A DNA stretch of 60,046 nt, taken from contig JAGGZK010000032.1 in NCBI GenBank assembly GCA_021162065.1, forward strand, positions 1-60,046. Direction: 5' to 3'. Below the pieces are notes generated by a model. That model was not told where the DNA came from. It did not search any database and saw only the letters and a list, made by a program, of their open reading frames with translations. Each line of letters opens with the position of its first letter. Position 1 is the stretch's first letter. The position numbers were made by a program, and so were the translations under genes. The DNA comes from Thermoplasmata archaeon (GTDB taxonomy: Archaea; Thermoplasmatota; E2; UBA202; JdFR-43). Shown here one piece after another: positions 46,462 to 50,546 of this stretch.

Positions 46462-46836
46462 TCATTCAATACTGAGCATCAGCAGAATCAGGAGAGCAAA
46501 GGTTTCAAAGAAGGGAGGTATCAGAGGGAACACAAAAAGCAGGAGTCGCTGAAGCAAAAGAACACCTATGAAGAATACAAGGCCAAGGGTAAAGGACGAT
46601 TTTGTCTTCCTATAGCTCGATATGTATATCACCAACACAACAAAAAGAAGTATGACGTTTATCAGCACTGCCGCAATGTAGATGGTTTTAAATAGAGATG
46701 TGCCAAATTTCGCCCTCATCAAATCCTGCCATCTCTGGCCATTGCTTGGTGGTTCATGGGTGGCAGCATATGCCATACCTGCAACCATGTTGAAGATGAT
46801 GGCAAGCGTTATCACAAGAGCTACTCCTCTTTTCAT
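46462..46836 (-). CDS. hypothetical membrane protein (signal/TM plus about 3 TM)
   Basis: Hydrophobic segments ALVITLAIIFNMVAGMAYA, IYIAAVLINVILLFVVLVIYI, LGLVFFIGVLLL and FALLILLMLSI. It starts 1 nt after the upstream HTH gene's stop. Confidence 0.5.
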   Translation of the reverse strand: MKRGVALVITLAIIFNMVAGMAYAATHEPPSNGQRWQDLMRAKFGTSLFKTIYIAAVLINVILLFVVLVIYISSYRKTKSSFTLGLVFFIGVLLLQRLLLFVFPLIPPFFETFALLILLMLSIE

Positions 46837-46837
46837 A

Positions 46838-47167
46838 CTATCTCATCCCTCCTCCCTTTATTTTATTTTTCCCAATTTTATCCCAAATCTCTCTGAAATG
46901 GGATATGTTCTCCTCCAGAATCTCGGAGATGAAATACATTTTTCCATAGCCCTCCCCCATGGAGGAAATCAAACTGTTTTTCTCCAGTATTTTGAGATGA
47001 TGTCTCACCGTCTTATAGTCCATGTCCAGTTTTTTTGCCAGCTCATTGGCATTCATGGGGTTCTTCGTTAATTCCTCGAGGATTCTGCCCCTATTTATGC
47101 CCCCTGCTGTGCCCGCCAGCAGCCACCAGAGTATCTTTTTGACAGGGTTCAATGGAATAAAATGCAA
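46838..47167 (-). CDS. ArsR-family winged helix-turn-helix regulator
   Basis: INRGRILEELTKNPMNANELAKKLDMDYKTVRHHLKILEKNSLISS is the typical ArsR/wHTH core. Confidence 0.8.
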   Translation of the reverse strand: MHFIPLNPVKKILWWLLAGTAGGINRGRILEELTKNPMNANELAKKLDMDYKTVRHHLKILEKNSLISSMGEGYGKMYFISEILEENISHFREIWDKIGKNKIKGGGMR

Positions 47168-47184
47168 TTGTTACTTATAAATAC

Positions 47185-48213
47185 TTAGGAAATTTTTTCC
47201 AGCGCCATTTTCTCCCTGAACTTTCTGACCTCATCCACATCTGGCAGTTTTATGGCAGCACCCTTCCTCTTTAATCTCCTGTTGTACTCCTCAACACCAA
47301 TCTCTTCCAGTATTTCCTTTCCCTTCTCCCTTATCTCGTCGAGTTTTTTATTCACCTCATCAACCGTATTTCTGAGCAGGAGGGCAAGGGATACTAAGGA
47401 AGCATTAAGCCCTCGGGGCAACCCCTCCATGATTATATCCCTATCCGGCACCCTCACACCCCATGAAGGTGGCTCATTAAAATTCGAGATGGGCAGCCCC
47501 ATTCCTGCCTCCAGATAATCCGAGAAGGTGGGATCGAGCTGAATCCATCTGCCGCCTATATAAAATTCCGCACATCCATGGAGTGAATCCAGAAATCCGA
47601 GCATCTGATACGTTTCCATCAGCACGGGGTCATCCTTAAGCATGACATCCACCAGTTCATCTACCGGGGTAAAGGCATACAGGCGATATCTGGCCTTTAT
47701 GCCCGCCGCCCTGGCAAGTGCTATAAAGAGAGACATCTGATCCAAGCATACGCCCCCTTTACTTTTTAATGTGCCCGTTGCCCCTCCCATGGGTTTAAAT
47801 ATGAGATATTTTTGATTTTTGACAAAGTAATAGATTCTTCTGAGATACTCCTCAGTGCTTATTTCTCCAGCCCCAAACTTTCTGGCGAGCGCCCTTATAT
47901 TTTTGTTATCACACTGGCATAACCGGGTGGGGCGAAGATATTTCTCTCTGCTCACATCTGGAAGGGAATCGAAATCCTCTATTTCCAGCATTCTTGTGCT
48001 GCTGTATTCGCTCTCATCCTCCAGATGTTTCCACGGAGCCATCCCCGCCCTCAATCTCCTTTTCCATGCGCCCACATTCTTAACCATGCTTCTGGGATTC
48101 CTGGCTATGGCGTATGAAAGCGGCGCCACCGTCTTCAGCAGATTTCTAACTATGGTCGGTGGGGGTATATCGCCCAGATCCATCTTCTCTCTCACCCATT
48201 TCATTTCAATCAC
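47185..48213 (-). CDS. transglutaminase-like (papain-fold Cys-His-Asp) domain protein
   Basis: GGVCLDQMSLFIALARAAGIKARY (nucleophile Cys context), HGCAEFYIGGRWIQLDPT (His ... Asp). Coiled-coil/charged C-terminal tail. Confidence 0.7.
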   Translation of the reverse strand: MIEMKWVREKMDLGDIPPPTIVRNLLKTVAPLSYAIARNPRSMVKNVGAWKRRLRAGMAPWKHLEDESEYSSTRMLEIEDFDSLPDVSREKYLRPTRLCQCDNKNIRALARKFGAGEISTEEYLRRIYYFVKNQKYLIFKPMGGATGTLKSKGGVCLDQMSLFIALARAAGIKARYRLYAFTPVDELVDVMLKDDPVLMETYQMLGFLDSLHGCAEFYIGGRWIQLDPTFSDYLEAGMGLPISNFNEPPSWGVRVPDRDIIMEGLPRGLNASLVSLALLLRNTVDEVNKKLDEIREKGKEILEEIGVEEYNRRLKRKGAAIKLPDVDEVRKFREKMALEKIS

Positions 48214-49640
48214 CTCATGCTCTCAACCATAAGCTCCCTCATCAGGTTGCCGCATCCCTTTGCTTCCGCCCCCCGCATCCTTGTTATTTCTCCGTCTATA
48301 ACAATGCCTTCCCTTCCGCATTCGGGGCAGGATTCCAGAAGTTTGACCTTGTCACCGGTAATAATGAAGCCGGGGTAGCTGTTGGCGGCAGGGTCAAGGA
48401 ATGCGAATCTTCCCTCCTCTCCATATCCGACCGGTTCGTAGTTTTCATCCAGGACCATGGGATATATCCAAGGCGGAATATGCTTGTATCTTGCCTCACA
48501 TTCAAGGGCAAGGCCGTTCATCTCCGACATACCATAGACATCCCTGTAATTTTCCTCACCTATGCCGAAATACTCCTTCACCATGCTCGCCATTTCTGAA
48601 GGAGAAATTTTCATACCTTCATGTATCTTCCATCCACCTCCTGTGATGATAACGGAGTTGCTTCTTCCCATGTCGAGATAAACCTCCTCTCCCTTCATTA
48701 TATTCATGAGGTCGTACAGCTGAAAGGGAAATGTTATCATGTACATCTGCTCTCCCTTTTTATCCATCTCCTCCAGCAGGCGCAGCAATTTCATCTGCCC
48801 TTTCTTCATCGCCTTCTGTATCACCAAGAGTTTCATCTTATCCTTTATTCCGTTTATCTGCCCCGCCATGATTTTTATTACATCCATGGTTAACTCCTTC
48901 TCTGTGAGGAAATGGCGATGATCATCGTCTGCCACCTTTGTGCCCTCGGCAACCCATCTCCCCATGGTGAGATATGTTTTTACCGGTCCGGGATATATCA
49001 CATGGGCATTGTCATCTGGCGGGAAGATGGAGAATAGCAGCACTTTATCGGCGGCGTAGAAGTTTCTTTTTCTGGTAACCACATCCCTAAACATAAAACT
49101 GAACTTTCCTGTGGTGCCGGAAGAATGGGTAACGAGTCCATTAAGTTTTTTCTCAGCCCAGGAGAAGAATTCGTTGAGGGATTTGCCCCTGAAGTCATAA
49201 TCACCTATGTCGATTGAGGAAACGGTGTATAACCACTCATACAGCTTCCTCGGCTCCTCACCGGGATAATCCTTGAAGAAGGTGTCGGGAAGCATGGGGA
49301 TTTTTGAAAAATCCTCCTCTCCCTTTATGTCATCGGGTGAAACACCATTATCCTTGCAGTAATTGTGGTAAAAGAGATTGTTGTTGTAATGATGATGGAA
49401 CGCCTCCTTTATGGCCCTGTTTCTTGTCTCTTCCGCCTCCACTCTGCTGTAGAGGAAATAGTCATCCATTCCATATATAAGCCTATCCACTTCCTTCCAC
49501 TCATTCTCCGGTATATAGAAAAGTTCTTTCATACGGGTGAGGAATTTATTCATGGGAAGCAAAAGATGGAAACAAATATAATGTTTCTTTAAAGCCATCT
49601 TTAAAGCCATTAAAATTTTGTTATACTGTTCCAGCGCCAT
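48210..49640 (-). CDS. LuxE-like acyl-protein synthetase / adenylate-forming (ANL-PaaK-type) enzyme
   Basis: FHHHYNNNLFYHNYCKDNGVSPDDI...FSKIPMLPDTFFK and the P-loop-like THSSGTTGKFSF match my memory of the LuxE/PaaK family. C-terminal CPECG. The probable true start is ATG 49553 (MNKFLTRMKELF). ATGA overlap with the downstream transglutaminase-like gene. Confidence 0.65.
   Translation of the reverse strand: MALEQYNKILMALKMALKKHYICFHLLLPMNKFLTRMKELFYIPENEWKEVDRLIYGMDDYFLYSRVEAEETRNRAIKEAFHHHYNNNLFYHNYCKDNGVSPDDIKGEEDFSKIPMLPDTFFKDYPGEEPRKLYEWLYTVSSIDIGDYDFRGKSLNEFFSWAEKKLNGLVTHSSGTTGKFSFMFRDVVTRKRNFYAADKVLLFSIFPPDDNAHVIYPGPVKTYLTMGRWVAEGTKVADDDHRHFLTEKELTMDVIKIMAGQINGIKDKMKLLVIQKAMKKGQMKLLRLLEEMDKKGEQMYMITFPFQLYDLMNIMKGEEVYLDMGRSNSVIITGGGWKIHEGMKISPSEMASMVKEYFGIGEENYRDVYGMSEMNGLALECEARYKHIPPWIYPMVLDENYEPVGYGEEGRFAFLDPAANSYPGFIITGDKVKLLESCPECGREGIVIDGEITRMRGAEAKGCGNLMRELMVESMR
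49587..49610. repeat. perfect tandem duplication of a 12-bp unit (ctttaaagccat x2)
   Basis: Read directly at 49587-49598 and 49599-49610. On the minus strand it reads ATGGCTTTAAAG twice (MALK MALK in the track ORF). It contains two TTTAAAG TATA-like elements. Confidence 0.6.
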
Positions 49641-49701: not shown

Positions 49702-50103
49702 ATGCTATCAAACCCACCCATAATCCTGGTTGTTGAGGACGACAAGCTCATTCAGGATTTAATAGAGAAATGGTTATCCACTCTGGGGGTGGAGCTGCAT
49801 TTCGCCTCCAACGGGCTGGAAGGAGTAAGAAAATACGAGGAGCTAACCAGGGCAGGAAGAAGGCCCGATCTGGTTGTCATGGATATAGGATTGCCGATAA
49901 TGGATGGAGTGGAAGCAACGAGAGAAATAATGAAAATAGATCCTGAGGCGAGGATATATGGCTTCACCGCCTTCTACGGCACCCATAAAGCGGAGCAGCT
50001 GCTAAATGCGGGGGCCATCGATGTCATACCGCGCTCCGTGGGCTTTGAAATATTCACCAGAGTCATCAGAGATGCCCTCATGGAGGAAGCCATGATGCAT
50101 TAA
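49702..50103 (+). CDS. stand-alone CheY-like response regulator receiver
   Basis: ILVVEDDKL..., PDLVVMDIGLPIMDGVEATREI and TAFYG...A. A TATA-like catttataaac lies about 25 nt upstream of the ATG. Confidence 0.9.
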   Translation: MLSNPPIILVVEDDKLIQDLIEKWLSTLGVELHFASNGLEGVRKYEELTRAGRRPDLVVMDIGLPIMDGVEATREIMKIDPEARIYGFTAFYGTHKAEQLLNAGAIDVIPRSVGFEIFTRVIRDALMEEAMMH

Positions 50104-50546
50104 TTGCCCAGCATGTCTCTTTTGATTTCATCAAAGAGCTCATCCACGTTGTTGAAATTCTTCACTCCAACCTCCCAGGTCATCAGCCCATACACTCTTT
50201 TTCCAAATTCGAGAGCATATGCTATCTCCGATAAAGTGCCGTAATGGCCATCCACCGCTATCACTATATCCCCGTTCATGGCAACCATGGCATTTCTTGC
50301 GTAACCTATCCCTGTAACTATTACATAATCGAGATACGGGTTTCCTTCCTCCCTGTCCTCTCCGGGAAGAATGCCTATGGTCACATCACCCTCCTCCTTT
50401 GCCCCCTTGGCGGCAGCCTCCATAACACCCCCTCTGCCTCCTGTTATGAGGACGGCGCCCATTCTTGCCACCCTTCTTCCAACCTCCTCCGCCATTTCAT
50501 ATATCTCGGGGCTGCAGTTCTCTCCGCCCACCACGCTTACATACAT
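50100..50546 (-). CDS. TIGR00725/LOG-like (SLOG) Rossmann-fold protein
   Basis: VSVVGG...LITGGRGGVMEAAAKGAKEEGG-type motif (ITGGRGGVMEAAAKGA) and GYGTLSE-like HYGTLSEIAYAL. Confidence 0.75.
   Translation of the reverse strand: MYVSVVGGENCSPEIYEMAEEVGRRVARMGAVLITGGRGGVMEAAAKGAKEEGDVTIGILPGEDREEGNPYLDYVIVTGIGYARNAMVAMNGDIVIAVDGHYGTLSEIAYALEFGKRVYGLMTWEVGVKNFNNVDELFDEIKRDMLGN

Follow-up and report, generated by a model that had tools for sequence, protein, structure and literature searches.

We analysed a stretch of 60,046 nucleotides from a Thermoplasmata archaeon (hereafter the window), which is one contig (C12) of a metagenome-assembled genome of 1.38 Mb and 95.9% completeness. Between positions 46,462 and 49,640, its minus strand encodes, in this order, an adenylating enzyme related to LuxE, a protein with a transglutaminase (TGase) fold, a winged-helix regulator and a small membrane protein. 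The first two genes, which we call the pair or the cassette, are the main subject of this report. A first-pass annotation made without database searches had placed four open reading frames (ORFs) here; all four were recovered at those coordinates in the ORF listing, and the motifs that it had picked out (THSSGTTGK, GGVCLDQ, HGCAEFY and QLDP) are all found in the translations. Homologous loci were collected by a scan of public genomes covering all prokaryotes, with one genome per species, followed by hmmsearch of the loci. Residue counts given below refer to 37 LuxE-like sequences from these loci and to 50 sequences of the TGase subfamily.

Two adjacent enzyme genes and their products

The LuxE-like gene occupies 48210..49553 on the minus strand. 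Its ORF as called runs over 48210-49640 and would encode 476 residues. Because homologues are 441–450 residues long and align from about residue 28–31 of this ORF, the protein probably comprises 447 residues and begins at Met30 (49553). The 87 nucleotides upstream of Met30 (49554..49640, minus strand), which translate to a MALK-MALK repeat within a putative non-coding extension of the ORF, are probably promoter DNA. The repeat arises from a tandem 12-bp duplication at 49587-49610, in which atggctttaaag is present twice on the minus strand, and each copy contains a TTTAAAG TATA-like element. The duplication sits in a divergent intergenic region of 148 bp that the LuxE-like gene shares with a response-regulator gene (49702-50103).

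The TGase-like gene follows on the same strand at 47185..48204 and encodes 339 residues. The two enzyme genes had been thought to share an ATGA overlap, which proved to be wrong. The junction reads AGC ATG AGG TGA TTGAA ATG, so that the TGA stop codon of the LuxE-like gene is followed by five nucleotides and an ATG (48205..48213, minus strand), with AGGTGA ahead. The more likely start of the TGase-like gene is this ATG (48204), 5 nucleotides past the stop codon and behind the AGGTGA box, which resembles a Shine-Dalgarno sequence. Orthologue matches in the related-genome search begin at residue 3–4 of the long form as called (47185-48213); a GTG at 48213, which overlaps the TGA stop as GTGA, is a less likely alternative. 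As judged from its sequence, the junction indicates tight translational coupling. Of 37 pairs from related loci, 36 have open frames that, measured from stop to stop, overlap or are separated by no more than 4 nucleotides.

The LuxE-like assignment of the first protein, made initially from the sequence alone, was borne out by its match to the Pfam LuxE family (PF04443; 3.9e-35, 121.9 bits against a cut-off of 24.9), and all three LuxE-family paralogues of the genome exceed this cut-off. Its P-loop reads SSGTTGK. When solved structures were searched by sequence, the top match and the only strong one was LuxE (chain 7xc6_E, 6.3e-31), in an alignment that matches up the KGC and GGGWK motifs. According to structural work on LuxE, the enzyme lacks the ANL C-terminal subdomain, requires Lys238 and Arg355 for adenylation and thioesterification, and has a flexible C-terminal motif, 358-TRxxKGCxLS-367, with Cys364; this Cys receives the acyl group and, as proposed there, then swings into LuxC's active site (PMC9157457). 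In the HMMER alignment, Lys238 corresponds to K309 of the GGGWK motif (codon 48629-48627), Arg355 to R425, and the KGC364 motif to AKGC434, within AKGCGNL (codon of C434, 48254-48252). All 37 family members have K309, R425 and C434, and all have the [KR]GC tail motif. The first-pass annotation had recognised in this locus the logic of an adenylating enzyme combined with a thiol acyl-transfer fold, and the invariance of a LuxE-type tail cysteine and Lys/Arg pair lends that suggestion further support. An AlphaFold2 model of the protein has an overall predicted local distance difference test (pLDDT) score of 86; its tail (residues 430–447) falls below 50, which agrees with the picture of a flexible tail in LuxE.

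By its profile scores, the LuxE-like protein is a member of the PF04443 family and not an orthologue of the LuxE of lux operons: the equivalog model for LuxE proper (NF052244, long-chain-fatty-acid--protein ligase) has a cut-off of 550 bits and gave 123.6. The competing assignments named beforehand were PaaK and coenzyme F390 synthetase, and no such grouping was seen, with 122–124 bits for the LuxE models against 41.7 and 20. PaaK identity was rejected at 41.7 bits (cut-off 700) and 20.5 bits (cut-off 646) for the PaaK models, and F390 synthetase identity at 20 bits for the F390 FtsA model (cut-off 459); the matches to these models cover only the N-terminal 50–60 residues. At the level of structure, Foldseek found the best matches for the body of the protein among PaaK-family ANL enzymes (PaaK1 and PaaK2). 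Three further cysteines, C352 and the pair in C409-P-x-C412, are invariant in all 37 sequences and absent from LuxE. In the window they are encoded at 48497-48495 (C352) and 48326-48315 (C409-P-E-C412), and the CPxC motif is located in a beta-hairpin turn. C352, C409 and C412 may be ligands of a putative zinc site, to which H358 or C434 would contribute the fourth.

The second protein matches Transglut_core (PF01841) over the whole 108-position model (7.5e-15, 55.6 bits against a cut-off of 23), in agreement with its earlier description as TGase-like. The predicted Cys-His-Asp triad aligns across all three paralogues of the genome; in the window it consists of Cys153 (codon 47748-47746), His209 (47580-47578) and Asp224 (47535-47533). 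The AlphaFold2 model (pLDDT 91.9) has the TGase core fold, with a Foldseek probability of 1.00 to both 3isr and TgpA. In VIA-align comparisons, the highest Z score was obtained with the putative cysteine protease 3isr (10.7), followed by Streptococcus pyogenes TglA (9crn; 8.9), TG3 and factor XIII (8.2; 7.5–8.2 with TG2 included), arylamine N-acetyltransferases (NATs; 6.5–7.5), pseudomurein isopeptidases (6.6–7.0) and the amide synthase GdmF (8oom; 6.2), all of which align in the core only, at a TM-score of about 0.3. TglA ranks second among the structural matches, and a literature search for this protein turned up no account of it. The best sequence match to a solved structure was again 3isr (4.6e-07). 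Outside the core, the subfamily has its own helical N terminus of about 90 residues and its own C-terminal helical hairpin.

The nucleophilic Cys is present in all 50 members of the TGase subfamily, and a second Cys (Cys96, in the motif YLRPTxxC) in 49. The canonical His and Asp are each found in 34 members. In the other 16, all among the divergent loci L033–L050, Glu replaces the canonical His, and in 13 of these the Asp position is taken by His, so that a His and an acidic residue are both kept in 47 of 50 members (34 canonical and 13 exchanged). In one member (L045), Glu and Asn occupy the His and Asp positions. An example of the exchanged arrangement is found at L034:3989-4975, and the clade consists of L033–L047 and L050. 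From the alignment, two catalytic partners appear to have swapped positions in this divergent clade. The exchange of His and acid around an invariant Cys suggests that the Cys/His/acid site is under selection.

Conservation, copies and neighbours of the pair

Each of the four window proteins was searched against 40 related genomes (41 with the window's own). The LuxE-like and TGase-like genes were found in 40 of the 41 genomes, always adjacent and on the same strand with the LuxE-like gene first. Synteny across relatives, which the first-pass annotation had made a test of its four-gene arrangement, thus held for the enzyme pair; it failed for the regulator and membrane-protein genes, which adjoin the pair in two genera only (g1 and g4). 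Most of the related genomes contain three such pairs. In the source genome these lie in the window, at C20:1381-3713 (plus strand) and at C6:13971-16275 (minus strand), and each partner is 32–38% identical to its own paralogues. All three LuxE-family genes of this genome are paired with a member of the TGase subfamily, and its other four Transglut_core matches are generic.

A similar picture emerged from the public genomes. There, 36 loci (L015–L050) carry full-length TGase members scoring above 260 bits, and generic TGase hits (L051–L094) score below 100 bits. A LuxE-like gene lies upstream on the same strand in 30 of the 33 subfamily loci with enough upstream DNA; in three others (L020, L025 and L039) the contig begins at the TGase gene. 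The two genes are directly adjacent in 29 of these 30 loci, and in the remaining one (L036) a short-chain dehydrogenase/reductase (SDR) gene lies in between. None of the generic TGase hits from the scan had a LuxE-like neighbour. Quick maximum-likelihood trees of the 37 LuxE-like sequences and their 37 TGase-like partners recovered the same major clades, and the window-type clade sits on a long branch with 100% support in both. These matching clades show that the cassette was duplicated as a unit and that the partners diverged together.

Close homologues of the proteins are labelled Thermoplasmata, Thermoplasmatales or Thermoplasmatota archaeon and come mostly from hydrothermal or sediment samples. 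In a sample of 101 genomes spread evenly over the phylum, the LuxE-like family was present in 14, all of which belong to the class of the window (families f1, f2, f4 and f6); genomes of the remaining classes in this sample gave no match. A few loci carry other NCBI labels: a Methanomassiliicoccales metagenome-assembled genome (L048), Peptococcaceae (L020), Anaerolineales (L039) and Chloroflexota (L050). The last three are full-length TGases of the archaeal subfamily on contigs binned as bacterial, and L050, which lacks a LuxE-like gene over 3.8 kb of upstream DNA, has a major facilitator superfamily (MFS) gene nearby. These outlying loci may reflect gene transfer or binning error.

The reductase LuxC, the canonical partner of LuxE, had been noted as missing from the locus; PF05893 was indeed not found anywhere in the 95.9%-complete genome, and control genomes gave matches. 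Neither the LuxE-like nor the TGase-like protein matched any PADLOC anti-phage family at E values up to 0.01, and we rejected a defence-system reading on this basis.

Clustering of ORFs from 50 loci identified no third gene and no precursor-peptide gene common to all clades. Clade-specific neighbours in these loci were Mut7-C (7 loci), MFS permeases (6), Nramp-like proteins (10, weak matches) and SDR genes (4). MFS or Nramp-like permease genes come after the pair in 16 loci of the most divergent clade, which also has the SDR genes in 4 loci; these neighbours are the only hints from gene context, and they favour a small molecule rather than a protein as the target. In the source genome, the pair on C20 has Mut7-C, an AsnC-type regulator and a B12-radical SAM enzyme as neighbours, the pair on C6 has MntP, an alpha/beta hydrolase and enolase, and the two sets are unrelated to each other. 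The Mut7-C RNase-domain gene (PF01927, 9e-53; L013:3710-4177, contig C20) overlaps and follows the TGase-like gene of this second pair, an arrangement seen in 7 loci. The NAD-dependent epimerase/SDR genes are found in 4 loci (L035:6263-7369, L036:1941-2936, L041 and L047) and also match, more weakly, the NAD_binding_4 'male sterility' reductase domain. By analogy with LuxC, an SDR beside the cassette could be a candidate enzyme for reductive release.

A possible acyl relay and its alternatives

We propose, with moderate confidence, that the cassette encodes an ATP-driven relay in which an acyl group is handed from one Cys to another and is finally released by amide formation or hydrolysis. We infer the Cys-to-Cys transfer and the amide outcome by analogy with known enzymes. 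The LuxE-like enzyme would use ATP to convert a carboxylic acid to an acyl-adenylate and, as in LuxE, would then move the acyl group onto Cys434 of its own flexible C-terminal tail. The TGase-fold protein would act as the receiver in place of LuxC, with the tail passing the acyl group to Cys153 by transthioesterification. Finally, the Cys-His-Asp site would resolve this thioester onto an amine, much as transglutaminases and NAT-type amide synthases do, to yield an amide or isopeptide, or, less likely, onto water. Such a relay would need neither coenzyme A (CoA) nor a carrier protein, and the three pairs of a genome would presumably differ in their substrates or acceptors.

For a receiver that has a transglutaminase/NAT-type site, transfer to an amine is the most economical outcome. 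It is possible, and we suggest it tentatively, that the cassette represents an unrecognised amide-forming machinery, in which the tail Cys serves as a built-in carrier and the TGase-fold protein ligates acyl groups to amines. This would amount to an ATP-driven transglutaminase that dispenses with CoA, a carrier protein and a glutamine donor, and three specialised versions of it per cell would make acyl-amide metabolites or protein modifications in Thermoplasmatota.

Several observations weigh against the relay. Three TGase genes of the subfamily (L042, L045 and L050) have no LuxE-like gene within 2.9–3.8 kb upstream, and two others (L048 and L049) have Glu and Val at the His and Asp positions, with no aligned His. 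The three extra invariant cysteines of the LuxE-like protein suggest, from their conservation, a metal site. No LuxE–TGase fusion was found among longer proteins, although this is weak evidence. Moreover, prokaryotic proteins with a TGase core are often hydrolases rather than transferases.

This last point leads to the alternative that survives best, namely that the TGase-fold protein is a hydrolase (a peptidase, amidase or thioesterase) and not a transferase. It might generate the carboxylate for the LuxE-like enzyme, following the logic of the lasso-peptide B protease and C cyclase, or its role might be to cleave or proofread either the thioester on Cys434 or the final conjugate. In favour of this reading, the annotation of the closest solved relative, 3isr, is that of a putative cysteine protease, the isopeptidases PeiW and PeiP as well as LapG are among the structural matches, and hydrolysis would fit an intact Cys-His-Asp triad equally well. 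However, no conserved small ORF or precursor-peptide gene was found beside the pairs, the use of ATP would be futile with a simple thioesterase, and the conserved self-acylating tail needs an acceptor, for which no other candidate is conserved nearby. We consider a hydrolase rather unlikely.

A special case of the relay has a macromolecular acceptor: an acyl group, a peptide or a protein C terminus would be ligated to a lysine or to the N terminus of target proteins, resulting in ATP-driven acylation or cross-linking. Consistent with this possibility, the fold is nearest to that of the protein-modifying transglutaminases TG3, factor XIII and TG2 (Z scores of 7.5–8.2), three paralogous pairs in a small genome suggest a housekeeping role, and the components appear to be cytoplasmic, as their translations show no signal peptide. 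Nevertheless, the 16 loci of the divergent clade with MFS or Nramp-like permeases fit a small molecule better, and no target gene is conserved nearby. We regard protein modification as quite unlikely.

A further alternative treats all four genes of the locus as one regulated operon, with the cassette under the control of an ArsR-type regulator and its product exported or anchored by the membrane protein. The regulator gene (46838..47167, minus strand) encodes an ArsR/SmtB-type winged-helix protein of 109 residues as called, and the membrane protein of 124 residues is encoded at 46462..46836 on the same strand. The shared strand and the gaps of 17 and 1 nucleotides, which had been given correctly for the ORFs as called, favour an operon, and the arrangement recurs in g1 and g4. 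The regulator matches HTH_5 (1.4e-09, 38.1 bits against a cut-off of 22) and HTH_20 (6.5e-09), and it falls below the subfamily cut-offs for the metalloregulator model NF033788 (40.6 against 55) and for SdpR-like proteins (38.3 against 100); on profile matches, it is an ArsR-type fold without a subfamily assignment. Its orthologue matches begin at residue 2–6, and a conserved TTG at 47152, codon 6 of the called ORF, is the more likely start, which would give 104 residues. The membrane protein is hydrophobic, with an N-terminal signal or transmembrane segment and about three transmembrane helices, and had no Pfam or NCBIfam match above cut-off. Its gene always lies directly after the regulator gene; an orthologue is present in 33 of the 40 relatives and adjoins the regulator gene each time.

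The sequence upstream of the regulator gene argues against a single operon. It consists of TTATAA(G/T), a T-rich spacer of about 21 nucleotides and TTGAAYCC (47152-47182 in the window), with the TATA-like element TATTTATAAG at 47173..47182 (minus strand), right behind the stop codon of the TGase-like gene. The box and TTGAAYCC are kept in all 7 loci in which the regulator–membrane unit stands behind a cassette and in 4 of 5 loci in which it stands elsewhere (L108–L112); the fifth, L111, has the variant GTTATTAA. From this conservation we infer an archaeal TATA box and a leaderless or near-leaderless transcript with the TTG as its start codon. The conserved box suggests that the unit has its own promoter, and the two genes probably form an independent transcription unit. 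Scans for sigma-70 promoters and terminators, whose models are not meant for archaea, found sites no more frequently than in shuffled sequence. The two units lie on different contigs in the genera other than g1 and g4 that have both, the TATA-like box and conserved TTG travel with the regulator–membrane pair, and the two paralogous cassettes of the source genome have no regulator or membrane-protein neighbours. The four-gene operon of the first-pass annotation was thus not borne out, and we rejected it because the adjacency is local and the regulator–membrane pair carries its own conserved promoter-like box; an operon of this kind is very unlikely.

The weakest alternative, an ordinary acyl- or aryl-CoA ligase of the PaaK type next to a functionally unrelated TGase-like gene, draws on the JGI name 'phenylacetate-CoA ligase PaaK-like' for many homologues, on the Foldseek matches and on the weak PaaK-model match of the N-terminal 60 residues, but it is barely credible given scores far below the PaaK and F390 cut-offs, the invariant LuxE-specific [KR]GC tail and Lys/Arg pair, the near-universal synteny with the TGase subfamily and the joint duplication of the two genes.

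Two further genes separate the cassette from mre11-rad50 on its upstream side. The response-regulator gene at 49702-50103 (plus strand) encodes a stand-alone receiver domain and is convergent with a SLOG cluster-4 gene (LDcluster4, 2.7e-42; 50100-50546, minus strand), with an overlap of 4 nucleotides.

Comparison with known systems and implications

The proposed Cys-to-Cys relay most closely resembles the LuxE–LuxC fatty acid reductase (7xc6; PMC9157457), with which the cassette shares a PF04443 enzyme, the GGGWK lysine, the arginine, the flexible [KR]GC tail and an adjacent partner gene. LuxE–LuxC operates independently of CoA and a carrier protein, as we propose for the cassette. In contrast to LuxE–LuxC, the partner here is a TGase-fold Cys-His-Asp protein instead of the aldehyde-dehydrogenase-like reductase LuxC, and the system includes no LuxC, LuxD or LuxAB. 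The LuxE-like protein also differs from LuxE in being about 70 residues longer, in its extra C352 and CPxC motif, in being archaeal and in occurring in three paralogous pairs.

On the side of the TGase-like partner, the NAT family and NAT-type amide synthases such as GdmF (8oom) have a papain/TGase-like fold and a Cys-His-Asp triad in common with it (Z scores of 6.2–7.5). NATs take a thioester-bound acyl group onto the enzyme Cys and then transfer it to an amine, which is the chemistry that we propose for the partner. Their donor is acetyl-CoA or a chain bound to an acyl carrier protein, whereas here it would be the tail Cys of an adenylating enzyme. The helical N- and C-terminal extensions of the TGase-like protein are unrelated to NATs, and the likeness seen is one of structure. 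The protein 3isr (PF01841) has the same core, with the nucleophilic Cys at a helix N terminus followed by His and Asp. Unlike the subfamily described here, 3isr has no adenylating partner; the subfamily is set apart by its LuxE-like neighbour, the YLRPTxxC motif, the C-terminal helical hairpin and a clade in which His and acid are exchanged.

Lasso-peptide biosynthesis likewise combines an adenylating enzyme, the lactam synthetase C, with a TGase-fold cysteine enzyme, the transglutaminase-like protease B. Its adenylating enzyme is related to asparagine synthetase and is not of the ANL/LuxE type, and the pathway requires a precursor peptide and a recognition element for ribosomally synthesized and post-translationally modified peptides (RiPPs). 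The cassette differs in having neither a conserved precursor-peptide gene nor a conserved RiPP recognition element beside it.

Full-text literature searches found no paper that links LuxE-type enzymes or acyl-protein synthetases with transglutaminase-like partners, and they likewise found no described archaeal system of this composition; the first-pass annotation had known of none. New here are three pairs that diverged together, a clade with exchanged His and acid, extra invariant cysteines, a class-restricted distribution and the autonomy of the regulator–membrane unit.

The products of the pair are at present annotated as hypothetical, 'PaaK-like' or 'transglutaminase-like protease', and the PaaK-like name may mislead metabolic reconstructions into inferring the degradation of aromatic acids. 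If the relay is correct, it would extend the principle of LuxE, in which an acyl group is activated by an enzyme and carried on its own tail Cys, beyond bioluminescence. Feeding a transglutaminase/NAT-like fold from an adenylating enzyme would be new chemistry, and biocatalysis could profit from a compact two-protein route to amide bonds without a cofactor carrier. The relay would, in addition, provide a function for three gene pairs that are kept in the small genomes of widespread sediment and hydrothermal archaea.

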